A DNA stretch of 62,585 nt from positions 1-62,585 of the forward strand of contig CAZHKX010000001.1 in the NCBI GenBank assembly GCA_964532805.1, in the 5' to 3' direction. The number at the start of each line of letters is the position of its first letter. Position 1 is the first letter of the stretch. The notes below the pieces were generated by a model. That model was not told the origin of the DNA and did no database searches. It worked only from the letters and a program-made list of their open reading frames with translations. Origin of the DNA: an uncultured Clostridia bacterium (lineage in GTDB: Bacteria > Bacillota > DTU025 > MWDF01). Positions 9,889 to 62,585 of the stretch are shown one piece after another. The position numbers and the translations under genes were made by a program.

Positions 9889-9911
9889 TTTCTCCCCTCC
9901 AAGAACCAGAT

Positions 9912-10199: not shown

Positions 10200-10232
10200 C
10201 TCCCAAGGCGGCCTTGCCGCCCTTGTTGTGGA

Positions 10233-38544: not shown

Positions 38545-38575
38545 ACTCTTCAGGAGCAGGTCATCATGGCAATAA

Positions 38576-38652
38576 TGGCGGAAGCGACGGGAGTCGAACC
38601 CGCGGTCTCCTGCGTGACAGGCAGGCATGTTGGACCACTACACCACGCCTCC
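38576..38652 (-). tRNA. tRNA-Asp (anticodon GUC), CCA encoded
   Basis: The reverse complement contains CCTGCCTGTCACGCAGG (the same anticodon arm as E. coli tRNA-Asp), acceptor GGAGGCG/CGCTTCC, and T arm GCGGGTTCGACTCCCGT. Confidence 0.9.
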
Positions 38653-38758
38653 GCGCTATTGAGTATTATACCGTATTAACCTCAGGCGGGGAACAGGAAG
38701 GAAAAAACCTTAGGGCATAGTATATCTACACATGCGGCATTCCAGGAAGGATGCGCAA

Positions 38759-41254: not shown

Positions 41255-41260
41255 AGATAC

Positions 41261-44200: not shown

Positions 44201-44875
44201 GCAGCTGGCGAGATAGAGGGGATACAGGGCGTAATCATCGACAACACCGAGAAGAAGGTAGCCGAAATCGAAAGGCAGAGGAACCATGAGGAGCTGAAGC
44301 TTGCATGGAACAGAAGCCTTGACGTGCTCTCCTCGGTAACCGAGTTCAAGGACCCATATACCGCAGGCCATCAGCGTGGGGTAGCCGAAATCGCGGAGAG
44401 CATCGCAAGGATGATGAGCCTTCCTGAGGCCAAGATCGAGGCCATATCGAAATCCGCCCTGGTGCACGACATAGGGAAGCTGTACATCCCGGCGGACATA
44501 CTCAACAGGCCCAGGGTCCTTACTCCTTTGGAGTATAAGCTCGTCAAGATGCACAGCCAGTCAGGCAGGGATATCCTATCCAAGATCAAGCTTCCTTGGC
44601 CGCTAGCCGAGATAGTGTTCCAGCATCACGAGAGGATTGACGGCAGCGGCTATCCAAGGGGGCTCAAAGGCGATGAGATCCTTCTGGAGGCAAGGATAAT
44701 CGCCGTCGCCGACATAGTTGACGCCATGACCTCCCACAGGCCATACAGGCCGGCATGCTCGATCGGTGATGCGCTACGGGAGGTTGTCTCGATGAGGGGC
44801 ACTTCGCTGGACCCTGACGTAGTTGACGCCTGTGTTGCAGCATTCAGGATGAAGGGCATAGAACCGGCAGCCTGA
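41261..44875 (+). CDS. Polytopic-membrane multi-PAS HD-GYP domain protein (putative c-di-GMP phosphodiesterase)
   Basis: About 8 TM at the N-terminus and at least 4 PAS modules, then YTAGHQRGV, HDIGKLYIP and HHERIDGSGYP. The start may be ATG 41285 (GGAGG upstream). The gap from the preceding gene is only 6 nt. Confidence 0.88.
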   Translation: MPEGGGGNMQERMKQYLLWGVSAVAIMSSIVLISLRDEVSTHIFFGFCSMTIGIIAMLTLYYLNRSSKDVYTFALMIASVATWVTLYIHMLNDMGYLGFLNYTAQSGMQIRYVTRMAQSFVILTYLLLRRREDKIWLMQPMTLSFMLLCYALIYFGAFPELMDSSTNPTALAVSFNVIQLLSISGLILVILRAKFLRPYLPSFTIGGIMLIAGSFLSLFGLRASDPSLHVVESLSDMFAYLAFYIGFSIPAARGNLEMGLLPILADRSSLITALAHPAFIADQDLLIVSVNSEAEKWLKKSRMELIGKIVYSILPEAEQLLKDMVAESRITSREVARPTQSLAGRHVSFTLYPSINRDRQASRFTFVAWDVTGEIEAEEGMERNERMYKSLFLNIGTGFMLYRLSADRSSKEIEVIDVNPAFERNTGERGPFPPGGKLRERTRFMNAGWYDMVLRAALDKRSVIIDGFSSGSERWLSISAFPITEETFGMVITDQTSLRNFQREISASELKYRSLVEGMPMFVLSLDSDFRVTYVNDSLRESTGLGSPDEYLGKPIDEVFSQDYCHFLNRMRSGISLKAGTISEELETSRRGKSRWQKWLAKSVADNDVILGYIFLGQDITEQKEAAQSISLSEERFRTLFMDNYLPMLIVDAEDLSILMANKASQSFYGLAEEELQGETLVSFSPGLDHESIKLMAKSTRDSGFSSMCTRQLASGGQIKDVDLFASTLFLADKMVLSFTVNDISERRQMENKLEQERTYLDSLFENNPDAVAIVESNMRITRANNAFRRLFGFSSEAIIGKKMSELIGTPQTAQDIEENIVKSLEGNKLDFTARRQRRDGTTIPVRVICIPMIQADGSKNVYAIYHDLSELAQSQEMLGLANEVIKESPAVLFKWSNQTDWPIEYVSTNVSRWGYNPDDLLGRKLRFSELVNEEDLVRVTQEVEENLRNGVFEYVQEYRLRRADGHYIWVEDHTRIVRSAAGEIEGIQGVIIDNTEKKVAEIERQRNHEELKLAWNRSLDVLSSVTEFKDPYTAGHQRGVAEIAESIARMMSLPEAKIEAISKSALVHDIGKLYIPADILNRPRVLTPLEYKLVKMHSQSGRDILSKIKLPWPLAEIVFQHHERIDGSGYPRGLKGDEILLEARIIAVADIVDAMTSHRPYRPACSIGDALREVVSMRGTSLDPDVVDACVAAFRMKGIEPAA

Positions 44876-44934
44876 GCGCTACGAGTATAACCGGCCAATC
44901 ATGCTTCAATCGGAGTAATGGGCTTAAGTAGCAA

Positions 44935-44966
44935 GGAAGGGCGGTCGCACGCGTTGCCGCCCTTCC
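44935..44966. terminator. Bidirectional stem-loop between convergent genes
   Basis: GGAAGGGCGG (44935-44944) pairs perfectly with CCGCCCTTCC (44957-44966), with a 12-nt loop. Confidence 0.6.
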
Positions 44967-44989
44967 AATCATTATCGCCGACGTCGCAT

Positions 44990-47900
44990 TCAGCGGCCAG
45001 CCTCCACCCCTCTGGAGAGCACCTGCTCGACTTTCTCGTGAAGCTGTGCCATGGTGAACGGCTTCTGAAGGAAACCTATCCCCTTGTCTATCGACATGCG
45101 CTTTTCTATCGCCTCAGGGAAGTGACCGGATATGAACATGGTGCTAATGTCAGGCAGAACCGCTTTTATCGCCTCAGCCAGCTCGGATCCGTTCATCTCC
45201 GGCATTATCAGGTCGCTTATCAGAAGGGATATGTCCTTCCTCTGTTTTGCCACCTCGATTGCCCTTGAAGGAGTGTCTGCGGTGACGACTTCGTAGCCGC
45301 CTCTTTCTAGCATGGTCTTGGCAAGCCTTAGGATGGCGGGCTCATCCTCGACAAGCAGGATCACCTTCCTTGCTCCGCCTGGCGCCAACAGGTCCGCCTG
45401 GTTCCTGGTATCGGTCCTTTCCTTGTGCTTAGGCAGGTAGACCCTGAAGATCGACCCCTTATCCGGTTCGCTCTCCACCTCGACGAAACCGCCGTTCTGC
45501 TTAACTATGCCGTAAAGCACAGCCATGTCCATACTGCCTGCCGGATTCACAGTGCTGGAGGCAAAGGGCTCGAACACGCTCGTCAGCTCCTCGCCGCTTA
45601 GGCCCTTGCCGCTATCCTCGACCGTTATCATTAAATAGTCGCCCGCTCCCACTCCTCCCATGCTTGCAGCCACTTCGTTGCTGACCTTCCTCACCGAAGT
45701 GGATATCGTTATTCTCCCCTCTTCCGATATCACCTTGTTGGCTCTTGTGCAGAGGTCGGAAAGGACCTGTTCGGCCTGTTGCCTGTCCATCATCACCAAA
45801 GGAGTGCCGCTGCCCGGGTTCCAGCTGAAGTCGATCTCCTTGCGCATCCCGCCCCTGCAGTGCTCAATCTTGCCTCCAATGAGCTCGTTGAAGTCGATCG
45901 GCTCCGGACTTATGCTCTGCTTGCCTGCGAAGGTGAACAGCTGTCTAGTAGTTGCTGAAGCCCTCAATGCCGCCTCGTGGATCGCCTCAAGGCTCCTGTG
46001 GAACTCGTCATTCGCCTCTGCCTGTTCAAGCGCAATCTCTGAATTCCCGAGTATCACACCTAGCATGTTGTTGTAATCATGTGCTATGCCCTCAGCCAGC
46101 CTCCCGATGGACTCCATCTTCTGCGACTGTGCGTAAAGCTCCTGGAGCCTCTGGTTCTCCTCTAGCATCTGCCTGCTCGCCTCTTCGTTCTTAATGGTGT
46201 GGAGCCCGAAGGAGATGTCGCTTGCCATCTCGGTGAACAGCGCCATCTCTTCCTGATCTATAAGGCTTTCATGTGCGGATATGACCACGAAGTAGCCGTA
46301 GTCTGCCCCGGCATATGACAGCCTGGCACAAAGGCCTCCCATATCCTCGTTGCCCTCACAGCCTTCCATTGCGCTGTCCAGGACCACGATGCCCTCTTCG
46401 GCCTTCTGTGCCCTCTCGAAGCACTCAGGATAGTCGCCGGCAACTACTCTCCTTGCGAGACTCTCAAGGCAGCCACCCTTGATTCCTGAGCTCCAGGCCC
46501 TGCTGTTGCCATCGTCATCTCTGAGGACTATCAAGGAATCCGCATACCCGTGGTCTCTTACCAGTATCCTCGTCGCCTCGGCTATCAGTGCATCGGCGTC
46601 CTTGACCTTGGTGAGAAGCTTCCCGATGTTCCTAATGGAGCTTAACACCCTGTTCATATGAGTTATCCTGTTTAGCATCTGCATGGTCTCGGTCGTATCC
46701 TGCAAAGAGCCTTGAAGGCCAGTTATCTTGCCTTCAAGGTTCCTGTTCGCCTGAATCCTCAACAGAAGCATCTTGCCAGAAGCCTCGCCTTGGGAAACGG
46801 AGAGGTTCAGGCTCATGCTGTCGCCGGAAGCAAGCGCCTGCTCGAAAGCGCTCCTGACTGTGTCAAGGGTGAAGGAGTCAAATGACTCAGCCAGCTTGAA
46901 GAACGGTGCGATGTCGGGTGCAGGAAGCTTGCCCAGTATTCTGAACACCTCATCCGAGCAGTTCATCCTCTCGGAACCCTTCTGCCACTCCCAGCTTCCT
47001 ATATGGGATATCGCCTCCGTCTCCGAGAGCATGGACTGGTTCTTGGTGATCTCATCCTCAGAAAGCTTGCGCTCCGTAACATCGTGGTAGACTTCCAGAG
47101 ACGACACCGAGCCGTCCTCGTTTACGATCGGGATGTCGGTAATATCGTAGTAGCACCTGTTGCGCTCGAAGTACTTGCCCATCCTGATGATCTTCCCAGG
47201 TATGGACATCTCATGCCTGCACCTTGTGCATTTCTGCTCGATTTCGTTCAGGTATTGGTAGCACTTCTTGCCGGCAGGTTCGCCGAACTGCCTCAGCATG
47301 ACGGGGTTCGCGTACTCGACCTCGTACTCGCCGTTGACAATGCAGATTCCGCTGGGGAACTCGTCTAGGATCTGCTTCATCCTCTTCTGCTGCTTCTCAA
47401 GCGCGCCCTGGATTCTCTTTAGGTCCGTTATCTCAAGCATCGCCCCTACTATGCCCAGCGCCTTCCCCTTATCGTCCCTGTATACGGACTTGCTGATAAG
47501 ATAGGACTTCTCTTCACCTTCCGGCCCGCCGATCGAGGCTTCATATGCCGGGATTGCGCCTTGCTCCGAAAGGATGGTGTCATCTTTCGTCAGCACCTCG
47601 CGCAGGTTTCCGCCCGTTATCTCGTCATCCTTACGCCCTTTTATCTGATCGGCGACAAGGCCTATGACCCGCTCGAAGGATTTGTTGCACCCCAGATACC
47701 TGCCTTCCGAGTCCCTGAAGAAGACTGGGGCGGCGATCGAGTCTATGACGTCGTTGAAGAGCTTGCCGCTTGCCTTAAGCTGCTCAGTCCTGATCTCCAC
47801 CTGCCTTCTCAGAGTCCTGACCCAGGCAAGCGCCAGCAGGCCAAGGACGAGAAACGGAAGTGTGCCCATAAGGGCGAATCTCACTAGCGTGGCTGCGTCG

Positions 47901-49435
47901 AAGCGCCTTGGCTCATATATACCGAGCCATTCATCATACAGCTGCCTTAGCTCGCCGCTTTCCTTAAGGCCCTTTAGCCCTTCATCTATTATGTTAACCA
48001 GGGCCTTGTTCCCCTTGTTCACCGCAATTGCATATCCTGAGCTCGAGAAGGATTTAGTCCCGACGATCAGGCCCTCGATTCCCCTCTCGTCTATGATGCT
48101 CCTCGCAACAGCACCGATCAGCAGCGCAAAATCGCCTTGGCCTGAGGAGAGCATGTTCAAAGCCTCTATATGAGATTCTGCAAGGATTAAGGAAACATTC
48201 AGGTCGCTGCTTCTCAGCAGTTCGTGGGAGATGCTGTTTGCCACCACTATGACCTTCTTCCCGCGAAGGTCCTCAAGATCGTCTGGAAGCGAGATGCCTG
48301 ACTTCCTTGCTATCGCTACCTGGCTGCTCTCGCCCAGCGAAGCAGAGAACTCGTAGTCCAGGTCCCTCTCGGGCGAGTACAAGATCCCCAGCACCGCATC
48401 CACCTTTCCCTGCTTAAGGCCATCCAGAAGGTTGGAGAAGCTGTCGAACCTGAATTCGATGTCAAGCCCTGTAGAATCGGCGACTGCTTTGATCACCTCA
48501 ACAAGGTAGCCAGCCGGGCGCCCCTGGCCATCTTCATACGAGAAAGGTGAATATTCCCTGCTGGCGCCTATTATCAATTCCCTGTCCGTTGGCAGTTCCA
48601 TCGATGCGAACCACTTTGAATGAAGGTAAGAATAGGTCCCGTCGGCAGTCAGTATCGCCAATCCTTCATTCAGTATTGCAAGGGTGTCCCTATCACCCTC
48701 CTTGACTGCAAAGCAGAAATCCTGCTTAAACTCCTCAATGGGCTGTTTAAGAACAGTAAGCCCTTTGATCTTCTTCTCATTGATAAGCCTTATGGCGACG
48801 AGCCTCTGCGCCACCACGGCATCATACAGGCCTTCGGAGAGATTCTGGAGCGCTTCGTCGAACGTAGCGGTGGTGGTGATCTTCACGCCGAAGTCGTGGC
48901 GACGAAGGAACTCCTCGGCATTGTCCCCCTTCATGACCCCTACTTCCTTGCCTCGGAGGTCCGCAATCGAGGATATGCCAGTAGCCCCCTCCCTCACAAC
49001 TATCGCTCCATAAAGTGACATGTATGGCACAGTGAAGTCAAATATTTTTTCCCTCTCCTGGGTGCGTCCCACCAAGGGTAATGCCTGCACTTCACCTTTT
49101 TCGAGCCACCCTCTAACATCCTCCCATATCCCGGTCCTGTACTGGACTTCCTTTCCCATGGCCTTTACCGCCTCTGAAAGAAGCTCAACCGAGAAGCCTG
49201 TGGCATTGCCGTTGTCATCTACCAGGCAGAATGGAGGATAGTCCACTTCGGATCCTGCTGTGATGACATCCGTAGCGGAGGCCGCCTGCGTAAGCAAGGT
49301 GGAAAGCGATATGGCGAATATCAGGCAATATGCGATCCAGCCATTATCCTTGGCGAAGACCCGACGGGCAATTCCACGAATAAAAGCAGCCAGGCGCATC
49401 GTTATCCCTCCAGCACGTTTCATCAAGCCTCGCAT
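44990..49435 (-). CDS. Hybrid sensor histidine kinase, BvgS-like (2x periplasmic SBP_bac_3/Venus-flytrap, TM, PAS x3, GAF-like, HisKA, HATPase, REC)
   Basis: Two family-3 solute-binding modules (DYPPFCLVDDNGNATGF... and EYSPFSYEDGQGRPAGY...), a TM segment, H-box IAHDYNNML, an ATPase G-boxes region, and C-terminal REC LLVEDEP...ISDLIMPEMNG. I recognise no Hpt domain. Confidence 0.9.
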   Translation of the reverse strand: MRGLMKRAGGITMRLAAFIRGIARRVFAKDNGWIAYCLIFAISLSTLLTQAASATDVITAGSEVDYPPFCLVDDNGNATGFSVELLSEAVKAMGKEVQYRTGIWEDVRGWLEKGEVQALPLVGRTQEREKIFDFTVPYMSLYGAIVVREGATGISSIADLRGKEVGVMKGDNAEEFLRRHDFGVKITTTATFDEALQNLSEGLYDAVVAQRLVAIRLINEKKIKGLTVLKQPIEEFKQDFCFAVKEGDRDTLAILNEGLAILTADGTYSYLHSKWFASMELPTDRELIIGASREYSPFSYEDGQGRPAGYLVEVIKAVADSTGLDIEFRFDSFSNLLDGLKQGKVDAVLGILYSPERDLDYEFSASLGESSQVAIARKSGISLPDDLEDLRGKKVIVVANSISHELLRSSDLNVSLILAESHIEALNMLSSGQGDFALLIGAVARSIIDERGIEGLIVGTKSFSSSGYAIAVNKGNKALVNIIDEGLKGLKESGELRQLYDEWLGIYEPRRFDAATLVRFALMGTLPFLVLGLLALAWVRTLRRQVEIRTEQLKASGKLFNDVIDSIAAPVFFRDSEGRYLGCNKSFERVIGLVADQIKGRKDDEITGGNLREVLTKDDTILSEQGAIPAYEASIGGPEGEEKSYLISKSVYRDDKGKALGIVGAMLEITDLKRIQGALEKQQKRMKQILDEFPSGICIVNGEYEVEYANPVMLRQFGEPAGKKCYQYLNEIEQKCTRCRHEMSIPGKIIRMGKYFERNRCYYDITDIPIVNEDGSVSSLEVYHDVTERKLSEDEITKNQSMLSETEAISHIGSWEWQKGSERMNCSDEVFRILGKLPAPDIAPFFKLAESFDSFTLDTVRSAFEQALASGDSMSLNLSVSQGEASGKMLLLRIQANRNLEGKITGLQGSLQDTTETMQMLNRITHMNRVLSSIRNIGKLLTKVKDADALIAEATRILVRDHGYADSLIVLRDDDGNSRAWSSGIKGGCLESLARRVVAGDYPECFERAQKAEEGIVVLDSAMEGCEGNEDMGGLCARLSYAGADYGYFVVISAHESLIDQEEMALFTEMASDISFGLHTIKNEEASRQMLEENQRLQELYAQSQKMESIGRLAEGIAHDYNNMLGVILGNSEIALEQAEANDEFHRSLEAIHEAALRASATTRQLFTFAGKQSISPEPIDFNELIGGKIEHCRGGMRKEIDFSWNPGSGTPLVMMDRQQAEQVLSDLCTRANKVISEEGRITISTSVRKVSNEVAASMGGVGAGDYLMITVEDSGKGLSGEELTSVFEPFASSTVNPAGSMDMAVLYGIVKQNGGFVEVESEPDKGSIFRVYLPKHKERTDTRNQADLLAPGGARKVILLVEDEPAILRLAKTMLERGGYEVVTADTPSRAIEVAKQRKDISLLISDLIMPEMNGSELAEAIKAVLPDISTMFISGHFPEAIEKRMSIDKGIGFLQKPFTMAQLHEKVEQVLSRGVEAGR

Positions 49436-49650
49436 GAAATCATGACTTTAATGATTAGACGGAGGCGCCCCTTTTTCCTTCACCCGGAGTCCTTTAAGCC
49501 CTTCGGGCGGCAATATGCAGTATCCCTGCGGAAATATTCATATTGTGCTTCCCTGCGCGCTGAAGGAATTGCATCTGCGGTTTAGAATATATAAATTTGT
49601 TTTATCGCTAACTAACTTGACAGATCCTTGCTGAAGGGGGCAGCTCCCTT

Positions 49651-50967
49651 ATGAAAAGAGGATACTCAGCCCTTGTCATCGCGTTATCGCTTCTAATAGT
49701 TGCTGCCGCCATCTTCATGAAGGCCGAGCAGTATGAGTCATCCTCGCTTCAGCAAGCCGCAGATGAGAGCTTCGGATTCAGGATAACCTGGGCCGACTAC
49801 TCAGGCAGGGGGGATACAATCTTCAGGATAGTCGACGCCTTCAACAAGTCGTCATCAGGCATCCTAGTGAACCTGGTCGGAGGCGATGAGGACACTCGGA
49901 AGATCACAGACCTTCTCGCAAGCGACAGGTCGATTCATGTATATGCCCTGCCCTACAGGCTGGTGATGTACTTCGCCGAGAAGGGGATGCTGGAGCCCCT
50001 GGACTCCGCCTTCGCTGGCGAGATGGGCTTCTTCCGCCCGGACATCCTCGGGCTCGGGTCGGTTGAAGGAAGGGCCTTTGGCATACCGTGGGTAAGCCAT
50101 TCCATAGCCCTCATATACAATCAGGGGCTTCTTGACAGGGCGGGCGTAGACCCGGAAAAGATAACCGACCTTGAATCCTTCATACGCGCCCTGGAGACCG
50201 TAGAATCCAGGACCGGAGCATATGGAGTCGGCCTTGTGGGTGCCGACCACAACGATGTCTCCTGGATGGTGAACCAGTTCATATACGGTTTCGGCGCGCG
50301 CCTTGTCAGCACTGACGGCAAAGACGTCCTGATAAATGACCCCAAGTCCAAGGCAGCGCTCCTTTTCTATAGGGACACGCTTGGAAAGCATGCGCAACCC
50401 TCCTGGCCCGACGACACCGGTGTGGAGGTAATGAAGCACTTCAGGGAAGGAAGGCTCGCCTTCGAGTTCCAGGGTTTATGGGGGCTGACTGACATAGAGA
50501 AGAACGGAAACCCGTTTGCCACCGGCATGATCACGCTTGACAGGATAGGGCTTTTCCCCGAGGTCGGCCCGATAATGCTTGCAGTGCCGGCAGGCCTGTC
50601 GGACAAGGACAGGGAGGCTGCATATGAGTTCATACGTTATATGATCTCCGAGCCCGCCCAGGAGATGGTCATGGACGGGGAGTACAGCCCGGAGCATGAT
50701 GCATTCTACCCCTTCCGGCTTCCCGCAAGGAAGGACATCGGCGAAAGCATCGTGCTGAGCAAGTACCCCCAGTACCTCCCTTTCCTATCCGGGTTTGAAA
50801 ACCCCAGCGTGGACGTCCCTATCCCCGCCTGGCAGATAGTGAAGGAGGAGGTATATGCACCAAGCCTTCATTCCTTCATGGCAGGCGAGATATCGGCAGA
50901 TGAGCTGCTGAGCAAGGTCGAATCCGAGGCTAGGAGGATAATCCAGAGCGAAGGCGACGCCCGATAG
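49651..50967 (+). CDS. Extracellular solute-binding protein (family 1-like), membrane-anchored, orphan
   Basis: N-terminal anchor ALVIALSLLIVAAAIF. Sugar-type SBP features (YALPY, GIPW, WPDD, FQGLWG). No ABC permease or ATPase gene is adjacent. Confidence 0.75.
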   Translation: MKRGYSALVIALSLLIVAAAIFMKAEQYESSSLQQAADESFGFRITWADYSGRGDTIFRIVDAFNKSSSGILVNLVGGDEDTRKITDLLASDRSIHVYALPYRLVMYFAEKGMLEPLDSAFAGEMGFFRPDILGLGSVEGRAFGIPWVSHSIALIYNQGLLDRAGVDPEKITDLESFIRALETVESRTGAYGVGLVGADHNDVSWMVNQFIYGFGARLVSTDGKDVLINDPKSKAALLFYRDTLGKHAQPSWPDDTGVEVMKHFREGRLAFEFQGLWGLTDIEKNGNPFATGMITLDRIGLFPEVGPIMLAVPAGLSDKDREAAYEFIRYMISEPAQEMVMDGEYSPEHDAFYPFRLPARKDIGESIVLSKYPQYLPFLSGFENPSVDVPIPAWQIVKEEVYAPSLHSFMAGEISADELLSKVESEARRIIQSEGDAR

Positions 50968-50976
50968 GAGGACAAC

Positions 50977-52050
50977 ATGGACTGTAAGATACTGGTAGTC
51001 GACGACTCCTTCGTGGATATGGCGCTTATCACCAGCATGCTAAGCGACTATATCACCTATACCGCCGCAAACGGCAAGATAGCACTTGACGTCATAAGGG
51101 AGAATCCCGACATCGACGTTATGATACTCGACATCAACATGCCGGTGATGAACGGTTTCGAGGTGCTTGAGGCCTTGAAGAAGATGCCGGAAGGCAGCAA
51201 GCTGATGACCCTTGTGCTTACCAACTACGACGAGCTCGAAAACGAGATCAGGGGACTTGAGCTCGGAGCGGTAGATTACATCAGGAAGCCGCTGAACATC
51301 GAATCGCTCAGGAAGCGCATTGAGATACACGCGAAGCTTAAGACGGCCTCTAAGACGATGGAGGCGCTGAACCTGGAGCTTGAGCGGAAGGTGCAGCAGA
51401 GGACCCAGGAGCTGATCCTTACTAGAGACATAACGATACACGCCTTGATCGGGCTTCTTGAGATAAGGGACATTGAGTCCAGCAACCATACCAAAAGGAC
51501 GCAGAAGATAATCAGGGCACTGTGCGAACAGCTAAAATCTACTGGAGAGTACGACATCCTCACCGAAGGCTACATGAAGGAGATCTATGAGACCGCCCCT
51601 CTTCACGACATCGGCAAGGTTGGCATCCCGGACGGTATACTGCTGAAGCCAGCCAAGCTGACAGCAGAGGAGTTCGAGTTCATGAAGAAGCACACCACCT
51701 TCGGCGTGAACGCGCTCATGTTCGCAGTCGCCCATGACACCATGCCGTCATTCATCAAGACGGCGATAGAATGCATCGGGACTCATCATGAGAAGTACGA
51801 CGGCTCTGGCTACCCTTCAGGGTTGAGCGGGGAGACCATCCCCCTTGCAGGAAGGCTGATGGCCATTGCAGACGTCTACGACGCCCTTATCAGCAAGAGA
51901 GTCTATAAGGAGGCTTTCAGCCACCAGGTAGCCAAGGAGACGATACTCAAAGAGCGCGGAAGGCATTTCGACCCCAAGATTGTGGATGCATTCATGGCTA
52001 TAGAGGAGAAGATCCTTGCAATCGTCGCTCAGTACAATCAGGCCTCATAG
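50977..52050 (+). CDS. Response regulator with HD-GYP output domain (RpfG-like)
   Basis: REC (ILVVDDS...[14 protein letters not shown]...K) followed by [17 protein letters not shown] and [20 protein letters not shown]. Confidence 0.9.
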
Positions 52051-52064
52051 GAAGGAGTGGTCAG

Positions 52065-54998
52065 ATGGGCGGCTTCAGCAGGAGGACCGCACTTGCCCTT
52101 CTACTTATTATCGGCCTGTTCACGTTGCGGGCTCAGGCTGATGCAGTAAAGCTAACGGAGGAGCAGGCTGCCTTCATAGCGCAGCACCCTGTCATAAGGC
52201 TAGGTGTCGATCCCAAGTTCATCCCTTATGAGTTCTTCGATTCGGACGGGGTCTATAAGGGGATAGCTGCGGACTACATCGCCCTCATCGAGGAGCGGAC
52301 CGGCCTAAACTTCGAAGTCGCCGAGGGGCTCACCTGGACTGAAGCCTATGAGAGCGCGGCACGAGGCGAGCTGGATGCCCTTCCATGCATATCTAAGACT
52401 TCGGAACGGGAGCGCTTCTTCCTTTTCTCAGAGCCCTACTATACCTTCCAAAGGGTTATCTTCGTCAAAAGCGACGACACCTCCATAAAGGGGCTGACAA
52501 ACCTCTCCGGCAAATCTGTCGCAGTGCAGAAGAACAGCTCACATCACAGCTACATGCTGCAATTCTTTGATGTGAAGCTCTCTTTGTACGACACCGTGGA
52601 GGAAGCTCTTCTTGCCGTATCCAACGACAGGGAGGAAGCGTATATCGGAAACCTGGCGACTGCTGTGTACCTTGCCAAGCAGAGCGGCATAACAAACCTG
52701 AAATACATAAGCCTGGACAGCGACCAGAAGCAGACCCTGCACTTTGCCGTGAGCAAAGACATGCCGATTCTTATCGAAATAATCAACGCAGCGCTTGAGG
52801 ATATCACCGTAGAAGAGCGCATGGCGATAAACAACCGCTGGATTGTGACTGAAAGCCACACCGACCTTTCTAGGATACTGAGGATCATCGCCGTCATATC
52901 CCTTGTAATCGGCCTGATCCTCCTTGTATCGCTTTACTGGATATTGAAGCTGAAGGCCGAGATAAAGGCAAGAAAGAAGCTCGAAGGCGAGCTCATCGTG
53001 GCGCGTGAGGCGGCTGAGAGGGCGAACAGCGTCAAGTCCGCCTTCCTTGCCAGGATGTCCCATGAGATAAGGACTCCGCTTAACGCAATAACGGGAATGA
53101 GCTACATCTTGAAGAAGACAGAGCTGCTGCCGGCGCAGAAGAGGTATCTGGACAGGATTCTGTCCGCTTCCAGGGACATGCTCGCGATAATAAACGACAT
53201 TTTGGACTTCTCCAAGATTGAGTCTGGGAAGATTGAACTCGAGCGAGTCTCCTTCAGCCTGGACAGTCTTCTCAAGGACGTGCTGAACATCATCTCCTTC
53301 AAGGCGGAGGAGCAGAATGTGAACCTTACGCTGCAAGTGGACCCCGCAATGCCCGACAGGTACTTTGGAGATCCGAAACGCATCAGGCAGATCTTGTTGA
53401 ACCTGGCCAGCAATGCAGTGAAGTTCACAAACGACGGGGTGGTATCAATCTCCGTATCCCGCAGGTCTCATGAAGGCGATATGCATGAGCTCGAGATGAA
53501 AGTGAAGGACAGCGGGATAGGTATGACTGATGAGCAGATGAAGAACCTGTTCGTGCCATTCACCCAGGCGGATGCGAGCATCGAAAGAAGGTTCGGAGGC
53601 ACGGGGCTTGGCCTTTCCATCGTCAAGGGGTTCGTGGACCTGATGGGCGGGGCTGTGGCGGTAGAAAGCACGCCCGGAGAGGGTTCCACCTTCACGATCA
53701 TTATTAAGCTGGAGGCGGATCCCGCTGTCGAAGAGCGTGCGAGGGAGTCGGCGATAGCTAGCTGCTTCAAAGGGCTAAGGGCAATAGCGCTGGAAAGCAG
53801 CAACCTTCATTCGGATTTGCTTAGAAGCTACCTGAAGTCCTTCGGCATAGAAGCCGACATCTCGGGCGAAGAGGCCTCGGCCCTGCGTATGATGCAGGAA
53901 GCTTTGAAAGCAGGCGGCAAGGCTTATGACATTGTGATAATTGATGACGAATCCGCTGCGGGCGGAGGCTTAAACTTCGCTGTCAAGGCCAGGTCCCTGG
54001 ATTGGGGTACAGCGCCTCCGAAGACGCTTTTGATCCTTCCTATGTCAAATGAGGCACTTCTGGACAAGCTGGACCAGTCCGGAATCGATTTCGGGATAAC
54101 GAAGCCGATCATCCCTTCGGTCCTTTTCAATACGCTTGCTGAGATGTTCAAGAAGGACATCCTAGACTTCCACGCAGGCGCCGACAATCAAGGCCCAGAG
54201 GAGATCAAGCTTGAACGCCCTTACCGCATCCTCGTGGTGGAGGACAACAAGACGAACCAGTTCATCGCAAAATCCATGCTCGAGCAATACGGTTTCGAAG
54301 TGATGCTCGCAGATGACGGTAAGGCAGGCTATGATAAGTACCTCTCAGAGCAGAGCGTAATCGATGCCGTGTTAATGGACCTGCACATGCCGGTTATGAA
54401 CGGCTATGATTCCGCAGCCCTCATAAGAAAGGCCGATCCGACGGTGCCAATCATCGCGATGACCGCCGACGCAATCACAGGCGTCGAGGAGAAGTGCAGG
54501 CAATCGGGCATGGAGGCCTACATCTCGAAGCCTTTCGAGCCTGAGATTTTCATCAGGACCATACTGGAGCAGATCAGAAGGAGGCAGAGCTCTTCATTCT
54601 CAGAAAGGCAGATGCTTAACTCCGACAGCACACCCGCTCAAAGCCATGATGCTGCGGAACTAGTATTGGACAAGGAAGCCGGCCTCAAGATGGTGGGGGG
54701 CAATCCGCAGATCTTCACCCTTATCCTTGGCGAGTTCCTTAAAGAGAACGCCTTATTGGAGTCGGACATCAATTCTGCCATAGAAAGCGGCAACTATGCC
54801 CAGGCTACACAGCTTGTTCATAAGGTGAAGGGCAGCTCTGGGAGCATCGGGGCGAAAGCTCTGTACAATACGGCAGTCAGCTTCCAGAAGGCGCTGAAGG
54901 AGGCGGACAAGCCGGCTATTGCCACGCTTCATGCGCAGTTCGTCCGAAGGCTTGTGAAGCTTCTTGCCGCAATCAAGGAGGAGCTGGAAAGTAAGTGA
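52065..54998 (+). CDS. Hybrid sensor histidine kinase (SBP_bac_3, TM, HisKA, HATPase, degenerate REC-like, REC, Hpt)
   Basis: Periplasmic family-3 SBP module, H-box MSHEIRTPLNAI, G-box GTGLGLSIV, REC ILVVEDNKTNQ...LMDLHMPVMNG, and C-terminal Hpt HKVKGSSGSIGA. Confidence 0.9.
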   Translation: MGGFSRRTALALLLIIGLFTLRAQADAVKLTEEQAAFIAQHPVIRLGVDPKFIPYEFFDSDGVYKGIAADYIALIEERTGLNFEVAEGLTWTEAYESAARGELDALPCISKTSERERFFLFSEPYYTFQRVIFVKSDDTSIKGLTNLSGKSVAVQKNSSHHSYMLQFFDVKLSLYDTVEEALLAVSNDREEAYIGNLATAVYLAKQSGITNLKYISLDSDQKQTLHFAVSKDMPILIEIINAALEDITVEERMAINNRWIVTESHTDLSRILRIIAVISLVIGLILLVSLYWILKLKAEIKARKKLEGELIVAREAAERANSVKSAFLARMSHEIRTPLNAITGMSYILKKTELLPAQKRYLDRILSASRDMLAIINDILDFSKIESGKIELERVSFSLDSLLKDVLNIISFKAEEQNVNLTLQVDPAMPDRYFGDPKRIRQILLNLASNAVKFTNDGVVSISVSRRSHEGDMHELEMKVKDSGIGMTDEQMKNLFVPFTQADASIERRFGGTGLGLSIVKGFVDLMGGAVAVESTPGEGSTFTIIIKLEADPAVEERARESAIASCFKGLRAIALESSNLHSDLLRSYLKSFGIEADISGEEASALRMMQEALKAGGKAYDIVIIDDESAAGGGLNFAVKARSLDWGTAPPKTLLILPMSNEALLDKLDQSGIDFGITKPIIPSVLFNTLAEMFKKDILDFHAGADNQGPEEIKLERPYRILVVEDNKTNQFIAKSMLEQYGFEVMLADDGKAGYDKYLSEQSVIDAVLMDLHMPVMNGYDSAALIRKADPTVPIIAMTADAITGVEEKCRQSGMEAYISKPFEPEIFIRTILEQIRRRQSSSFSERQMLNSDSTPAQSHDAAELVLDKEAGLKMVGGNPQIFTLILGEFLKENALLESDINSAIESGNYAQATQLVHKVKGSSGSIGAKALYNTAVSFQKALKEADKPAIATLHAQFVRRLVKLLAAIKEELESK

Positions 54999-55008: not shown

Positions 55009-55028
55009 GGGGGGCTGTGAAGCCCCCC
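55009..55028. terminator. Stem-loop between convergent genes
   Basis: GGGGGGCT-GTGA-AGCCCCCC, a perfect 8-bp stem with a GNRA-like loop, immediately after the kinase stop. Confidence 0.55.
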
Positions 55029-55047: not shown

Positions 55048-56937
55048 CTATCTCTGTGATTTCAGATCGGGCACCTGTACCGCTGACTTGCCGAACCTTG
55101 AAGTTGAGCTAATATCCACATCGAACAGGTACATCTCCAGCACATTGCTCCCTCTGAAAAGACCGAACTCCCCTATCGTGACTGGTTCCGAGCCATAATA
55201 ATCCCCTGCAGACACATCTCCATCCGCATCGATGTCGATCCATCCCCTAAGGTAATAAACACCTTGCAGGCTGGGAAACTCGAAGCTCTTGTCATCAGCG
55301 TTCCCGTAACCGTAATAGCCAGGAACGGGTTGACCAAGGGTATCTGCGATCCAGAAAACTGCCTTATCCATTGTAAGGCCCTCTAATGCAGCATATGCAT
55401 TGATTATCCCGGAACCATAATAGGAGTTCATTATGTCGCTCAGCTGAGCGGTCTTTCTCATCATATCTACCGCTGATCCAGCAGAGTAACCCTGCTGCAT
55501 TAACATCGCAATCAACGCTGACACATGAGGCGTAGCCTGCGATGTGCCGGACATTGAACCAGTATATCCCCTGTCTCTCGGAAAAAGGCTTCTGACTCCT
55601 AGCGTATAAGACCCACCTGGCGCCGCTAAATCTAGATCTGGGCTGAAATTCGAATATGATGCCCTCTCAAAGCTATCATCCACTGCAGAGACGGAAATGA
55701 CTCCAGGTAAGTTTGCTGGGAAGTTTATATCGCTGCTGTTTTGGTTTCCCGCTGCGGCAACTACGGCTATGCCTTTCGCTAGCGCGGCGTTAATGCTATT
55801 CGTTACCGTTATCCTTTCATCGGTTGTAGGGGAGCCACCTAGACTAAGGTTGATAATATCCGCTCCGTTGTCCGCTGCATATTGTATTGCAGAAGCAATC
55901 TGCTCATAACTTCCATATCCATCATCTTTCAAGCCCCGCAAAGGCATTATCGTTATCCCGCCCAGGTTCATTCCCGCCATGTAGCTGTTGTTGTCGGTGA
56001 CTGCACCGATGATGCCTGCGACATGAGTGCCATGCGGATAATCAGCCTCGCCTGGCAGATATGGGCTTCCAGTGAAGTCAACCAAGTCATCGACCTGTCC
56101 CATAAGGTCCGGATGCTCCACGTCCACCCTTGTATCAATAACAGCGACTGTAACATTCGGCGAGAGGAAGTCGCCGCCCCAGACGAATGGCATCGTGGTT
56201 GCAAAGAGGTTCCACTGATGGTCTCCGAAGTCATCGTCATCAGGTATGGAGTAATAGCTTGCGTAAAGGTAACCGTTAGGCTCGGCGTAGTCCGCCCAAG
56301 GCTCCATTGCGACTTCCGCCGCGAACTCGTCCGCGAACCTGCCCTTAGGCACCTTCATTATTATCACGCCCAGCTTAGGGTTGCTTCTGAGCACCGCAGA
56401 GCCCTTCTTCAGCGCGAAGCCCTCCATGGTCGGGAAATTAGCCCCATGCCTGGGTGCGACGATGATCTCCGCTGGCTCGGGATATGACTTCGGGCTTGAA
56501 ACAACTGTCCTTGAGCCAAGCGGCAGCTTAGAGCCAGCAGGAGGCGTAAGGTTCATCAGCGTCGCATATCCCGATATCGTGTTGACCGACGTTTCCTGCA
56601 CCATGTAGACATTCAGCAGGTGGCTTCCGCCGGCACTTCTCGTGAAAGTCCTTGTCTCCTGGTAATAGTCTGCATGGCTGAAGTTGACCGTAATCACCGA
56701 TCCGGCCTTCAACCCTGTCAAAGTCAGGGAGTACCCTCCGCTGACATTCGTGCTCGTGGTCACCTGCCCTGGCTTGCCCTGAACCTCAGCTCTGACTGCC
56801 ACGCCCGATATGCCGAAGTCGGTCGCCTGGTCCTTGACTGCCCCTCCTACATTAAGGCTGAAGGTTACCGTCTCATTGCAGCCGGCCATCAGCACAAGCG
56901 CAGCTGCGGCCAACAGTGCCAATATCCTCTTGCTCAT
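55048..56937 (-). CDS. S8 subtilisin-family serine peptidase lipoprotein
   Basis: Lipobox LMAGC, a CarboxypepD_reg-like N-domain, an I9-like propeptide, and the catalytic triad contexts VAVIDTRVD, HGTHVAGII and GTSQATPHVS. Confidence 0.88.
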   Translation of the reverse strand: MSKRILALLAAAALVLMAGCNETVTFSLNVGGAVKDQATDFGISGVAVRAEVQGKPGQVTTSTNVSGGYSLTLTGLKAGSVITVNFSHADYYQETRTFTRSAGGSHLLNVYMVQETSVNTISGYATLMNLTPPAGSKLPLGSRTVVSSPKSYPEPAEIIVAPRHGANFPTMEGFALKKGSAVLRSNPKLGVIIMKVPKGRFADEFAAEVAMEPWADYAEPNGYLYASYYSIPDDDDFGDHQWNLFATTMPFVWGGDFLSPNVTVAVIDTRVDVEHPDLMGQVDDLVDFTGSPYLPGEADYPHGTHVAGIIGAVTDNNSYMAGMNLGGITIMPLRGLKDDGYGSYEQIASAIQYAADNGADIINLSLGGSPTTDERITVTNSINAALAKGIAVVAAAGNQNSSDINFPANLPGVISVSAVDDSFERASYSNFSPDLDLAAPGGSYTLGVRSLFPRDRGYTGSMSGTSQATPHVSALIAMLMQQGYSAGSAVDMMRKTAQLSDIMNSYYGSGIINAYAALEGLTMDKAVFWIADTLGQPVPGYYGYGNADDKSFEFPSLQGVYYLRGWIDIDADGDVSAGDYYGSEPVTIGEFGLFRGSNVLEMYLFDVDISSTSRFGKSAVQVPDLKSQR

Positions 56938-56994
56938 CTCTCAGTTCACCGCCTTCATGGCTTTCCGACGGGCACATGCCGCCAATTGTTCATG

Positions 56995-58872
56995 CTATCG
57001 CGCGCTTCCGCCCCATATTTCCGGCACAGGCAGGCCTCTCATCAGCCCTTCATCCTCAATGTCAACGAACTTCAGCTTTAGTATGGAGGGAAGTGCCAAG
57101 GTCCCTTCAACCAGGAATACCTCCTGCTTACCGAAGAAATCCCCCTGGGCAGGGTAGTCCGTCGCGGAAAGGCCCACCCAACCGCAAAGGAAGGCGCTCC
57201 CTTCCGCATCTCCGAACACGACCATATCCCTGGAGGCATCGGAGCCTATGAAAGCATAGCTTATTGGGTCACTCTCTTCGTCGCACAGCCAGAACAAGGC
57301 CCTGCTCCCCCTAGCTCCGGCGGCAGCCGCATAGCAGTTGGCTATGCCCGCATCCTCCTCTTCCAGATACTCCGAGGATGCAACAAGTGCATCCTTCGCC
57401 TCATCCGCGTCCATCCCCAGCGACATAAGCACCGCCAGCATCCCCGAAATATGGGGTGTGGCCATCGAGGTTCCGCTCATCCTGGCATAACCAGTCGATT
57501 CTACTGCGAACGGCACGGTGCTAAGAACTCCATAGGCCCCCGTACCTCCTCCCGGGGCGAAGATATCCAGCCCGGGGCCGGTATTCGAGTAGTCCGCGCT
57601 GAACATGGCTGGCGTGATCGCACCTACTGAGAAGCACTTCCCGTACTTTCCGGGCATGGTAAGGTCGGTATCCGATCCGTTGTTGCCGGCCGCGGCGACC
57701 AATACGCATCCCTTGGCATCGGCATAGTCCAGGGCCTCCCTCAGGAGCCTGAAGGAGAGATCGGAGAAGAACAGAGGCCATCCGATGCTCATGTTGATGA
57801 TGTCCGCCCCGTTGTCCGCGGCAAGGCGGATCCCCCTGGAGATCGTCGACATCGTCCCCGAGGAGCTGCCTCCCCTCTTCTCCATGCTCTTTATTGGAAG
57901 GATCACTGCGTTAGGGGCCACTCCTGCGATGCCGATGGAGTTGTCCATCTCGGCTGCGATTATCCCCGTCACATGTGTGCCATGGCCTGCATTGTCGTTC
58001 ATGTCCGTGTTAATGGAGTTGAGCATCGGAAGGCATCTTGAGCTTAGGTCCGGATGGCTCACATCGACCCCGGTGTCGACTACAGCGACCACCACAGGCA
58101 GGGAAGGAAGCGCATGCCTCCACATCCTGTGCATGCTTGAGGCCCTGAGCGCCCACTGCTGCGGCCAGTACATGTCGTCAGGGACGTAGCCTCCCAGAGG
58201 ATAGCAGACGTAGTCCGGTTCAGCGTCTTCAACCCATGAGTAGTCCTTCAGCCTTTCGGAGAACTCCGAAGCGTCTGCCCCCTCCGGCAGGCTAAGGAGC
58301 ATGTATCCCATTTCAGGGACCGATTCCACCACCCTGCTTCCAAGCCGCCCCGAAGCCTCAGTGATCTCCCCGAACTTGGCACCATAGGCGGGATAGACGA
58401 CAACAGCGGTGGCCTCCGTGGCCTCTGTGGCCTGCATCGGGATGGTTTTCACCGAAGCCGCCCTCATCATGGATGCTTCCGGCTCGTAATCATTAGACAG
58501 TGTGAACTTGAACTCCACAAGAGGCCTGCCGGCAGAGGCGGGATACATGTCCGCGTTCACGCACATGCGGGCGCTTCTGCTTACTACGACTTCCTTACTG
58601 ACGGGAGCGTACCCCTCTGCTGTGAAGTTCAGCGTGAGCTTGCCAGGCTTCAGCGTAACCTCAAGGGTCTCGAAAGATCCCGTCGCGCCGCTTAGCGCGG
58701 TCATGACGCCGTCCGCAGACGCCCTTGCCCCCTCGATGCCCGCCTCGGACGCCGCGTCGCGCACGGTGCCAAAGAAGACGACCCTGCACGATTCGTCCTT
58801 CACACACCCTGTCATTAGGGCCATCATCAGGCATATCGTTATCGCCGCCGCTCTGATTGAGCATCTACCCAT
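56995..58872 (-). CDS. S8 subtilisin-family serine peptidase lipoprotein (paralogue)
   Basis: Lipobox LMTGC and the same architecture as its neighbour. Triad contexts are VAVVDTGVD, HGTHVTGII and GTSMATPHIS. Confidence 0.88.
   Translation of the reverse strand: MGRCSIRAAAITICLMMALMTGCVKDESCRVVFFGTVRDAASEAGIEGARASADGVMTALSGATGSFETLEVTLKPGKLTLNFTAEGYAPVSKEVVVSRSARMCVNADMYPASAGRPLVEFKFTLSNDYEPEASMMRAASVKTIPMQATEATEATAVVVYPAYGAKFGEITEASGRLGSRVVESVPEMGYMLLSLPEGADASEFSERLKDYSWVEDAEPDYVCYPLGGYVPDDMYWPQQWALRASSMHRMWRHALPSLPVVVAVVDTGVDVSHPDLSSRCLPMLNSINTDMNDNAGHGTHVTGIIAAEMDNSIGIAGVAPNAVILPIKSMEKRGGSSSGTMSTISRGIRLAADNGADIINMSIGWPLFFSDLSFRLLREALDYADAKGCVLVAAAGNNGSDTDLTMPGKYGKCFSVGAITPAMFSADYSNTGPGLDIFAPGGGTGAYGVLSTVPFAVESTGYARMSGTSMATPHISGMLAVLMSLGMDADEAKDALVASSEYLEEEDAGIANCYAAAAGARGSRALFWLCDEESDPISYAFIGSDASRDMVVFGDAEGSAFLCGWVGLSATDYPAQGDFFGKQEVFLVEGTLALPSILKLKFVDIEDEGLMRGLPVPEIWGGSAR
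58411..58437. repeat. Imperfect 9-bp tandem repeat x3 inside S8 paralogue 2
   Basis: GGCCTCCGT GGCCTCTGT GGCCTGCAT, encoding ...QATEATEAT... on the minus strand. Confidence 0.5.
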
Positions 58873-62454: not shown

Positions 62455-62585
62455 GCCCCCGCCCCCTTCCTTCTGAAGGATGCCCTCATGAGCCTGTTAA
62501 GCAGAAGGTCCGTCGCATATCCGAAGGCCACCAGCAGCAGGGTCCACGCGAAAAGCCCAGGTGTGTCCAGAAATGCCCTGGCAGT
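62451..62585 (-). CDS. ABC transporter permease, C-terminal fragment (gene continues beyond the window)
   Basis: My translation is TARAFLDTPGLFAWTLLLVAFGYATDLLLNRLMRASFRRKGAGA-stop. This is typical of the C-terminus of SsuC/TauC-type permeases and is coupled to the ATPase gene. Confidence 0.6.
   Translation of the reverse strand, partial: TARAFLDTPGLFAWTLLLVAFGYATDLLLNRLMRASFRRKGAGA

Follow-up and report, generated by a model that had tools for sequence, protein, structure and literature searches.

A 62,585-nt stretch of DNA from an uncultured Clostridia bacterium (positions 1 to 62,585 of contig CAZHKX010000001.1, assembly GCA_964532805.1; hereafter, the window) carries an operon that we consider fairly probable to be a self-contained, horizontally mobile three-component sensory module controlling the breakdown of cyclic di-GMP (c-di-GMP). 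Its three genes encode a solute-binding protein (SBP), a response regulator that joins a receiver (REC) domain to an HD-GYP domain, and a hybrid histidine kinase with a Venus-flytrap (VFT) domain of its own; the free SBP would serve as co-sensor. The parts of this proposal stand at different strengths. Sequence comparison makes a relay from the kinase to the phosphodiesterase highly probable, and it favors, with more modest confidence, an SBP that acts as a co-sensor of the kinase.

In clostridia, c-di-GMP is hydrolyzed mainly by HD-GYP enzymes (10.1101/2021.11.05.467447). Hardly any controlling signal is known for them in these anaerobes, and the cassette would provide a compact path by which a solute outside the cell could act on c-di-GMP. 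A 67.7-kb contig of a 1.76-Mb, 87%-complete metagenome-assembled genome (MAG) contains the window, and a domain scan of this MAG found 11 GGDEF and 7 HD-GYP genes; c-di-GMP signaling therefore appears to be active in the host, with HD-GYP as a principal hydrolase.

A conserved three-gene cassette

An earlier note on this DNA, made from the letters alone, had described three plus-strand genes with 9- to 14-nt gaps and good ribosome-binding sites, and its anatomy is correct in every checkable detail. The gaps are 9 nt (genes 1 and 2) and 14 nt (genes 2 and 3). The first ATG is preceded by the ribosome-binding site GAAGGGGG, and genes 2 and 3 have the Shine-Dalgarno sequences TAGGAGGAcaacATG and TAGGAAGGAGtggtcagATG, which overlap the preceding stop codon or lie directly 3' of it. 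Coordinates, gaps, and Shine-Dalgarno sequences were all verified, and the finding is real, not an annotation artifact.

With the SBP as seed, a pattern scan of 185,579 species genomes returned 80 loci, and by tblastn every locus with enough downstream DNA had the kinase and a REC-phosphodiesterase regulator. Identity across these loci was 42 to 79% for the SBP, 49 to 84% for the flytrap, 40 to 85% for the cytoplasmic part of the kinase, and 53 to 94% for the REC domain of the regulator. When flanking open reading frames (ORFs) of at least 110 amino acids (aa) from 81 loci were clustered, only the trio genes were conserved (81, 74, and 67 of the 81 loci), and the next cluster covered eight loci. 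The trio is thus a self-contained module that recurs beyond chance.

Altogether the cassette recurs in more than 100 loci, mostly of uncultured anaerobes, from sources that include digesters, sediments, and guts. The carriers found with the SBP seed are nearly all Bacillota MAGs, and the cultured ones include Sporomusa, Fusibacter, and Dehalobacter. Closer to the window, the cassette is present in two of the seven species of its genus, in none of 14 other genomes of its class, and in 2 of 401 sampled genomes of its phylum, both of which belong to the genus. Because the cassette is patchy near the window's genus, yet has orthologues spread across many named Bacillota families, its distribution points to horizontal spread. 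A few carriers are bins labeled Deltaproteobacteria, Solirubrobacterales, or Desulfobacteraceae (including L011, L023, and L050). Almost no difference separates the SBP of the "Desulfobacteraceae" MAG (L050) from its counterpart in a Bacillota MAG (L041; branch lengths, 0.005 and 0), so that these carriers may be mis-binned contigs rather than genuine transfers between phyla.

The regulator and its output

Gene 2 encodes a REC-HD-GYP response regulator, as first described: Pfam matches Response_reg and HD_5, and the catalytic residues are intact. Among 66 orthologues, receiver residues D52, T82, and K104 vary little or not at all, position 9 is D or E, and D10 never varies; each of the five is conserved in 63 to 66 of the 66. 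The HD-GYP domain has E167, H171, H210-D211, H239, H270-H271-E272, D275-G276-S277-G278-Y279-P280, and D299, and the same orthologues show little or no variation at E167, H171, H210-D211, H239, H270-H271, D299, and G278-Y279-P280. The HHExxDGxGYP motif and the full complement of eight metal ligands are thus kept in the 66 sequences.

The closest NCBIfam model is a c-di-GMP phosphodiesterase regulator family (below its cut-off), and the best solved relative is 4r8z, the HD-GYP domain of a cyclic di-GMP phosphodiesterase (E = 2.5e-39). A receiver with the phospho-acceptor Asp and its partners is joined here to an HD-GYP domain with the HD dyad, HHExh(D/N)GxGYP, and a full set of metal ligands. 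The regulator fits the RpfG family of REC-HD-GYP response regulators, which has the motif HHExh(D/N)GxGYP (Galperin and Chou, 10.1101/2021.11.05.467447). REC-HD-GYP proteins with complete active sites show robust c-di-GMP hydrolysis that depends on phosphorylation of the receiver (10.1101/2021.11.05.467447).

Nine genome loci have replaced the HD-GYP domain. Their regulator is a REC-PAS-PAS-GGDEF-EAL protein with a degenerate GGDEF domain and intact EAL motifs, encoded in the order SBP, kinase, regulator, and its REC domain is 55 to 60% identical to that of the window regulator. On the SBP tree these loci form a single clade (SH-aLRT support, 96) nested among the HD-GYP cassettes. Because an unrelated enzyme of the same activity was substituted while the rest of the module was kept, there is good comparative evidence that c-di-GMP hydrolysis is the selected, conserved output of the cassette. 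This natural swap argues for the c-di-GMP-lowering output that had been proposed from the letters.

The regulator is not uniformly annotated within Sporomusa. In Sporomusa ovata DSM 2662 (L001/L002, positions 8328 to 9259), it is called as two genes, a 113-aa REC protein and a 192- to 217-aa HD protein. At L010, the tblastn matches to the REC and HD-GYP domains abut at nt 9606, with about 47 linker-region residues unaligned; in S. silvacetica (L009), the regulator is one continuous gene. The two S. ovata genes may be naturally split or may result from a frameshift, the latter possibly reflecting a pseudogene or a sequencing error.

The kinase and its flytrap

Gene 3 encodes the predicted hybrid kinase with a family-3 SBP domain followed by HisKA, HATPase, a degenerate REC, REC, and Hpt, all of which Pfam recovers apart from the degenerate REC, seen as a sub-threshold match to CRE1 (residues 566 to 693). 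The NCBIfam models nearest to the kinase core are BarA, TorS, and LuxQ, each below its family cut-off. Across 68 full-length orthologues, H333, N446, N450, D482, G511-G516, D727, D772, T800, K822, and H919 of the Hpt domain vary little or not at all, the N and G boxes thus being kept. In the domain between HATPase and REC, D627 and K680 are retained in the 68 sequences, but there is no acidic pair and a Pro replaces the Thr/Ser residue, which fits a pseudo-receiver.

The best solved match to the flytrap is BvgS VFT2 (E = 2e-40). The flytrap also shares about 42% identity with 7ejg_C, which is the binding domain of an EAL protein and a PDB entry for which literature searches found methods papers only. 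Forty-three flytrap positions are at least 95% conserved, including T112-x-x-R115 and S158-S159-H160. In amino-acid binders of the SBP_bac_3 family, the T-x-x-R motif binds the alpha-carboxylate and the Asp of a "GD" motif binds the alpha-amino group. BvgS VFT1 and 7ejg have this Asp; the flytrap has an invariant Asn in its place (G195-N196). The invariant T-x-x-R together with the exchange of the amino-binding Asp for an invariant Asn suggests that the ligand is a carboxylate but not a standard alpha-amino acid. The "amino-acid-like" flytrap of the earlier note is therefore doubtful.

A solute-binding protein without a transporter

Gene 1 matches Pfam SBP_bac_8 and SBP_bac_1 (E = 1e-22), in keeping with the family-1-like SBP first proposed. 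An N-terminal hydrophobic anchor or signal (residues 1 to 26) precedes a binding domain at about residues 40 to 435. Residues 7 to 23 are hydrophobic without a lipobox Cys, and AlphaFold places a helix at residues 3 to 26, followed by a disordered linker. The membrane anchor that had been assigned to the protein is plausible on this model, but a signal peptide cleaved between AAA and IF would also be possible. The best Foldseek neighbors of the AlphaFold model (pLDDT, 89) are GacH, MalE, CbpB, and TMBP at 17 to 22% identity, with TM-scores of 0.71 to 0.85 (normalized to query or target length). The modeled fold is that of CUT1 oligosaccharide binders, which supports the sugar-like assignment. 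The protein has the type I/cluster-B fold with an oligosaccharide-type pocket that is expected of CUT1 proteins but lacks their two linked MalF/MalG-type permeases.

The statement that no ATP-binding cassette (ABC) permease lies nearby held up, with no BPD_transp_1 domain within 11 kb of the SBP gene. The sole BPD_transp_1 match on the 67.7-kb contig is 11.5 kb away in a NitT/TauT-type transporter, which we rejected as a partner because it comes with an NMT1-like binding protein of its own. The SBP's own genome encodes no paralogue of it, and of the 11 other SBP_bac_8 genes there, at least 9 have BPD_transp_1 permease genes within about 3 kb. MalF/MalG-type permeases are likewise absent from the recurring flanking-ORF clusters of the 81 related loci.

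Homologues of the SBP number in the hundreds at about 50% identity, and the family is sharply bounded: an exhaustive phmmer search of 1.84 billion representatives found only 26 at an E of ≤1e-30, and lower matches were generic sugar SBPs at about 25% identity. Two representatives at 38 to 40% identity (P0126 and P0129) are encoded beside a flytrap kinase and a REC-HD-GYP regulator. P0132 (38%) and P0136 (33%) have two BPD_transp_1 permease genes downstream, and P0137 (33%) has one before its contig ends. Genes for a LacI repressor and a GT1-family enzyme lie near P0132, and genes for GT1- and GH13-family enzymes lie near P0136. Judged by these neighborhoods, the relatives at ≤38% identity are genuine ABC-transport SBPs, and the sensor SBP therefore looks like a recruited sugar-transport protein.

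W47, R53, W147, H150, W205, W277, E344, and R356 are common to the sensor SBPs and their transporter relatives. The invariant residues Y102, R103, H150, and W277 align to D65, R66, E111, and W230 of E. coli maltose-binding protein (hhalign probability, 95%), which we take to be its sugar-contact positions. Because conserved residues fall on these positions, the pocket looks functional and sugar-like, and its ligand is possibly an alpha-glucoside-like sugar; our confidence in any specific ligand, for the SBP or for the flytrap, is low. Two motifs, P101-Y102-R103 and GLVGAxHNDVSWMVNQFIYGFG, occur only in the sensor clade and are absent from the transport relatives, making them candidates for a new specificity or a partner interface. 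No Rosetta-stone fusion of SBP and kinase was found among the 120 best homologues (413 to 501 aa) or the 150 best representatives, where one 888-aa match was just 26% identical.

Proposed mechanism

We propose that two binding modules lie outside the cytoplasmic membrane: the kinase flytrap, with its conserved, carboxylate-type pocket, and the free membrane-tethered CUT1-type SBP without a transporter. The SBP would be an accessory co-sensor that acts on the kinase from the outside, with or without ligand, most likely through contact with the flytrap. The kinase would autophosphorylate on H333, and the phosphoryl group would pass via D772 and H919 of the Hpt domain to D52 of the regulator. Phosphorylation of the regulator would then turn on the HD-GYP phosphodiesterase, and c-di-GMP would fall. 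We infer three of these steps, namely, the contact between SBP and kinase, the route of phosphotransfer, and the activation of the phosphodiesterase by phosphorylation.

The most interesting question is whether the kinase's own flytrap is the docking site of the free SBP. We know of no characterized SBP-dependent kinase that docks its SBP on a domain of SBP fold. Tentatively, and below the level of a favored reading, the sugar-type SBP may dock in this way, giving a hetero "double-flytrap" receptor that would combine two different extracellular solutes, a sugar and a carboxylate, in a single phosphorelay. By analogy, the SBP would in effect supply in trans the membrane-distal flytrap that BvgS has in cis, and cassettes without an adjacent SBP would be one-input derivatives. 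If true, such a receptor would be a new architecture and a natural two-input logic gate on c-di-GMP.

Kinases without an adjacent SBP and alternative explanations

Several observations weigh against an SBP that is integral to the module. A reciprocal metagenome scan seeded with the flytrap domain returned 80 loci at 53 to 65% identity. The full order SBP, HD-GYP regulator, kinase was found at 21 of them, and three had the SBP directly followed by the kinase, two of these with an EAL regulator visible downstream. Eleven had the HD-GYP regulator and then the kinase on contigs cut upstream, and at seven the upstream DNA was too short for classification. The remaining 38 (among L109 to L167) encode the kinase and a phosphodiesterase regulator with no SBP within about 6 kb upstream, and no conserved upstream gene was found in them. 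In 28 of these 38, the kinase is followed by a REC-PAS-GGDEF(degenerate)-EAL regulator (e.g., L109, positions 5818 to 11326); among 18 full-length regulators of the SBP-lacking clade scanned with a simple pattern search, 6 gave no match to the EAL motif.

We placed these kinases on a tree of 139 sequences (midpoint-rooted only), with SBP presence scorable in 128 loci. Most SBP-lacking loci, which are of the EAL type, form one clade (SH-aLRT support, 99). Together with a small HD-GYP pair, this clade is sister to the SBP-plus-EAL clade (99), and all are nested inside the SBP-plus-HD-GYP cassettes, with only three switches of SBP presence among the 128 loci. Because of this nesting, the simplest reading is that the three-gene state is older and that loss of the SBP, or its relocation within the genome, happened essentially once. 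All conserved flytrap pocket residues are unchanged in the SBP-lacking clade, where the kinase can evidently work without an adjacent SBP. As a derived clade without a nearby SBP keeps the pocket, the comparison indicates that the flytrap is an autonomous sensor and the SBP an accessory input that is not obligatory for the relay.

Other flytrap positions did change in the SBP-lacking clade (C108 to A, Y55 to F, and E96 to D, with D61, K65, Y71, and Y118 relaxed), and these are candidates for an interface with the SBP. C108 (positions 52386 to 52388) is the lone extracytoplasmic Cys of the kinase, four residues before the T-x-x-R pocket motif. It is kept in 94% of SBP-accompanied kinases and is Ala in 97% of the SBP-lacking clade. 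An intermolecular disulfide between SBP and kinase via C108 is unlikely, since no Cys is invariant in the SBP.

Mirror-tree analysis of 57 cassettes gave the SBP its strongest partial correlation with the flytrap, and vice versa (0.35), compared with 0.35 to 0.45 for covalently linked domain pairs and 0.00 for the flytrap and the kinase core. This signal is weak support for contact, as shared inheritance confounds it and no valid significance test applies. Against docking on a flytrap, Table 1 of a compilation of SBP-dependent sensors (PMC8050422) gives dCache, TarH, HBM, sCache, and 2CSK_N as docking domains, plus two unannotated ones, and no flytrap.

The SBP could instead be a passenger, with the flytrap kinase and HD-GYP regulator as a two-component core and the SBP serving a distant ABC importer, or scavenging or retention, and co-transcribed for a joint response. 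Such a role would explain a whole clade of kinase-regulator pairs that keep the pocket without an adjacent SBP, as well as an SBP that descends from transport SBPs and retains their pocket residues, and the genome's many CUT1 permease pairs (37 BPD_transp_1 matches) could in principle be shared. We nevertheless consider it unlikely. About 80 genome loci have no linked permease and only the trio genes as conserved neighbors, whereas nearly every other SBP_bac_8 gene in the genome has adjacent permeases of its own. The split between sensors and transporters is also sharp (at least 38 to 40% identity with the trio versus ≤38% with permeases), the sensor-clade motifs P101-Y102-R103 and GLVGAxHNDVSWMVNQFIYGFG are invariant there and absent from the transport relatives, and the evolutionary rate of the SBP tracks that of the flytrap.

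Alternatively, the SBP may no longer sense and may be a structural partner, a constitutive inhibitor or scaffold, with all specificity in the flytrap. There is a parallel in apo-CBP, which holds ChiS inactive. The flytrap pocket is equally invariant in kinases that have an adjacent SBP and in those that do not, and the SBP's identity of about 50% across many named Bacillota (Firmicutes) lineages is unusually high for a sugar binder and is what a protein-protein interface would impose. The invariance of canonical CUT1 ligand-contact residues shared with transporter relatives, however, implies a retained ligand pocket, and all characterized SBP co-sensors respond to ligand (PMC8050422); we regard this reading as improbable.

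Some HD-GYP proteins act on cyclic GMP-AMP (cGAMP) or through protein contacts, and the structure of a cGAMP-specific HD-GYP domain (5z7c) also matches gene 2 significantly, if more weakly (E = 7e-25). We give the least credence to an output of this kind, in which the enzyme would degrade another cyclic dinucleotide (e.g., 3'3'-cGAMP) or signal mainly through contacts as catalytically weak or inactive RpfG-family members do (10.1101/2021.11.05.467447), given that the eight metal ligands and HHExxDGxGYP are intact and invariant, unlike those of inactive members, that the c-di-GMP phosphodiesterase 4r8z is the best match, that one cassette clade swapped in an intact EAL domain, an enzyme class specific for c-di-GMP, and that the genome encodes 11 GGDEF proteins.

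Genomic neighborhood and variant loci

The operon and the features around it are collected in Table 1.

Table 1. Features of the three-gene operon and its surroundings (positions in the window)
Feature	Positions	Strand	Basis or remark
Gene 1, SBP	49651-50967	+	438 aa; ORF listing and translation
Gene 2, REC-HD-GYP regulator	50977-52050	+	357 aa; ORF listing and translation
Regulator REC domain, residues 5-116	50989-51324	+	Pfam Response_reg, 7e-22
Regulator HD-GYP domain, residues 159-335	51451-51981	+	Pfam HD_5, 3e-30 (HD also)
Gene 3, hybrid kinase	52065-54998	+	977 aa; ORF listing and translation
Kinase signal peptide, residues 1-26	52065-52142	+	
Kinase single VFT/SBP_bac_3 domain, residues 44-260	52194-52844	+	Pfam
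Kinase transmembrane helix, residues ~270-294	52872-52946	+	Followed by a coiled linker
Kinase HisKA, residues 324-388	53034-53228	+	Pfam
Kinase HATPase, residues 435-550	53367-53714	+	Pfam HATPase_c
Kinase pseudo-receiver, residues 566-693	53760-54143	+	Sub-threshold match, CRE1 first-receiver domain (E = 3e-4)
Kinase REC, residues 722-829	54228-54551	+	Pfam Response_reg
Kinase Hpt, residues 887-970	54723-54974	+	Pfam
Promoter/leader region	49436-49650	+	215-nt divergent intergenic region, common to the upstream minus-strand 1481-aa kinase gene
G/C-rich hairpin	55009-55028		8-bp stem, 4-nt loop; between kinase stop and convergent subtilase gene; read from the sequence
tRNA genes	36268-36339 and 38579-38652	minus	Flank the GGDEF gene on both sides
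GGDEF gene	37211-38359		Upstream of the operon; Pfam scan of flanking ORFs
PAS-HD-GYP gene	38732-41254		Upstream of the operon; Pfam scan of flanking ORFs
PAS-HD-GYP gene with MASE3-like membrane domain	41261-44875		Upstream of the operon
1481-aa kinase gene: two flytraps, PAS domains, REC	44990-49435	minus	Divergent from the operon
Two tandem paralogous S8 subtilase genes	55048-58872	minus	Convergent; 629 and 625 aa, each with an N-terminal CarboxypepD_reg-like domain

A riboswitch in the 215-nt leader was rejected, as Rfam gave no match, c-di-GMP riboswitches included, either in the entire window (gathering thresholds) or in the leader (E of ≤1), and a promoter scan of the leader found no sigma-70-like site. 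The hairpin beyond the kinase gene is a probable bidirectional transcription stop; it has no T-run after it and was not called by the terminator scan.

The operon lies at the end of a block of c-di-GMP genes (36268 to 49435). The closest relative, L007, is labeled uncultured Clostridia bacterium, and the close relatives L005 and L006 also have PAS-HD-GYP, large-kinase, and subtilase neighbors; the S8 subtilase pair occupies the same position in the window's close relatives. Because these neighbors are shared among close relatives and the distribution is patchy, the block may be an acquired island. The divergent 1481-aa double-flytrap kinase was rejected as the partner of the SBP, since only the closest relatives (L005 to L007) have it and the other approximately 75 loci do not. 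From 60999 to 62585 and onward (L088, positions 2000 to 6849), the minus strand encodes a ThiF-family protein, the NitT/TauT-type ABC transporter (an ATPase, one permease, and an NMT1/VitK2_biosynth-like binding protein), and a 571-aa carbon-nitrogen hydrolase, all unrelated to the operon.

Two groups of loci have distinctive surroundings. A divergent cassette (L175/L176, positions 2038 to 6812; SBP, 39% identical) has the order SBP, kinase, REC-HD-GYP regulator, with a shorter kinase (783 aa) that has no Hpt domain on record; CheY-like and CheX-like genes adjoin it, which hints at a link to chemotaxis or motility control. In a Christensenellaceae-like subgroup (L021, L032, L040, L042, L058, L061, L068, and L081), three divergent genes adjoin the cassette upstream. 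They encode a membrane family-2 glycosyltransferase of 475 aa whose match to chitin synthase is weak and sub-threshold, a secreted protein of 737 aa without any Pfam match, and a 372-aa protein that is HEAT-repeat-like by eye alone. These genes may form an exopolysaccharide locus, a possible target of control by c-di-GMP.

Comparison with known systems

The earlier note had likened the operon to the RpfC/RpfG relay of Xanthomonas, and the likeness holds for the layout, in that a hybrid kinase with fused REC and Hpt domains is encoded beside a REC-HD-GYP regulator. The systems differ in their input. RpfC has a multi-pass membrane sensor, whereas in the window kinase one SBP_bac_3 domain lies between a signal peptide and a single transmembrane helix, so that the input here is a single extracytoplasmic flytrap plus a free SBP. 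The kinase core scores best against the BarA and TorS models, and the carriers are Firmicutes/Bacillota rather than the Proteobacteria that carry RpfC/RpfG. No gene like rpfF (enoyl-CoA hydratase family; synthase of the diffusible signal factor) was found in Pfam scans of the flanking ORFs, nor was a fourth conserved gene in the 81 loci. Because the kinase is of the BvgS family, there is no RpfC-type membrane input, and no rpfF-like gene lies nearby, the operon, which has no Rpf-specific feature, is not a rewired Rpf system by descent; it resembles RpfC/RpfG in function and not through common ancestry.

The kinase belongs to the BvgS flytrap family and shares with BvgS/EvgS an N-terminal SBP_bac_3 flytrap, one transmembrane helix, and HisKA-HATPase-REC-Hpt. 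BvgS/EvgS has two flytraps, and the window kinase has one; the latter also has no PAS domain between the membrane and HisKA and has the extra pseudo-receiver. The partner of BvgS/EvgS is a NarL-type DNA-binding regulator, whereas here it is an HD-GYP enzyme, accompanied by a free SBP gene.

VieS of Vibrio cholerae is a hybrid kinase with periplasmic SBP_bac_3 domains, and VieA is a REC-EAL-HTH c-di-GMP phosphodiesterase. VieSAB, too, is a three-gene operon in which a flytrap hybrid kinase phosphorylates a phosphodiesterase response regulator, and the EAL-type cassettes are especially similar to it in logic. The third protein sets them apart: VieB is a cytoplasmic inhibitor and there is no free binding protein, whereas the window operon has an extracytoplasmic SBP. 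In its logic, a flytrap hybrid kinase that feeds a receiver-phosphodiesterase, VieSAB matches the window operon (PMC4352251).

The nearest parallels to the SBP are the SBP-dependent "three-component" sensors, which include XylFII-LytS-YesN of Clostridium beijerinckii, HptA-HptS-HptR, LuxP-LuxQ, TorT-TorS, and CBP-ChiS (PMC8050422), as well as CuaD-CuaS-CuaR of Ruminiclostridium cellulolyticum (PMC10384115). Like them, the cassette has a transporter-less SBP gene in an operon with a kinase and a regulator, the SBP being in those systems an extracellular co-sensor, for sugars in Clostridia; its SBP gene is linked to signaling genes and not to a transporter. Their kinases dock the SBP on dCache-, TarH-, HBM-, or sCache-type domains, whereas the sensor of the window kinase is an SBP-type flytrap, and their outputs are transcription factors, whereas the output here would be a second-messenger phosphodiesterase reached via a four-step phosphorelay. 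The compilation in PMC8050422 contains no receiver domain of SBP fold and no HD-GYP output. In NspS-MbaA of V. cholerae and ScrB-ScrC of V. parahaemolyticus, a free SBP (SBP_bac_8 in NspS) is likewise encoded beside a c-di-GMP enzyme, and small molecules control c-di-GMP. There the SBP binds the periplasmic domain of the GGDEF-EAL enzyme directly, without a kinase or phosphorelay, whereas the window operon encodes a kinase and a predicted phosphorelay.

The cassette family offers natural comparisons, of HD-GYP with EAL output, of loci with and without an adjacent SBP while the flytrap pocket is unchanged, and of sensor with transporter SBPs at 33 to 38% identity, which make a ligand search and interface mapping tractable. 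As a small, portable module, it could also serve as a synthetic-biology part that ties a solute to second-messenger control. Full-text literature searches found no papers on HD-GYP together with a solute- or substrate-binding protein and a hybrid kinase or three-component module. Set beside these systems, the cassette is uncharacterized and widespread, and it is built entirely from known parts.

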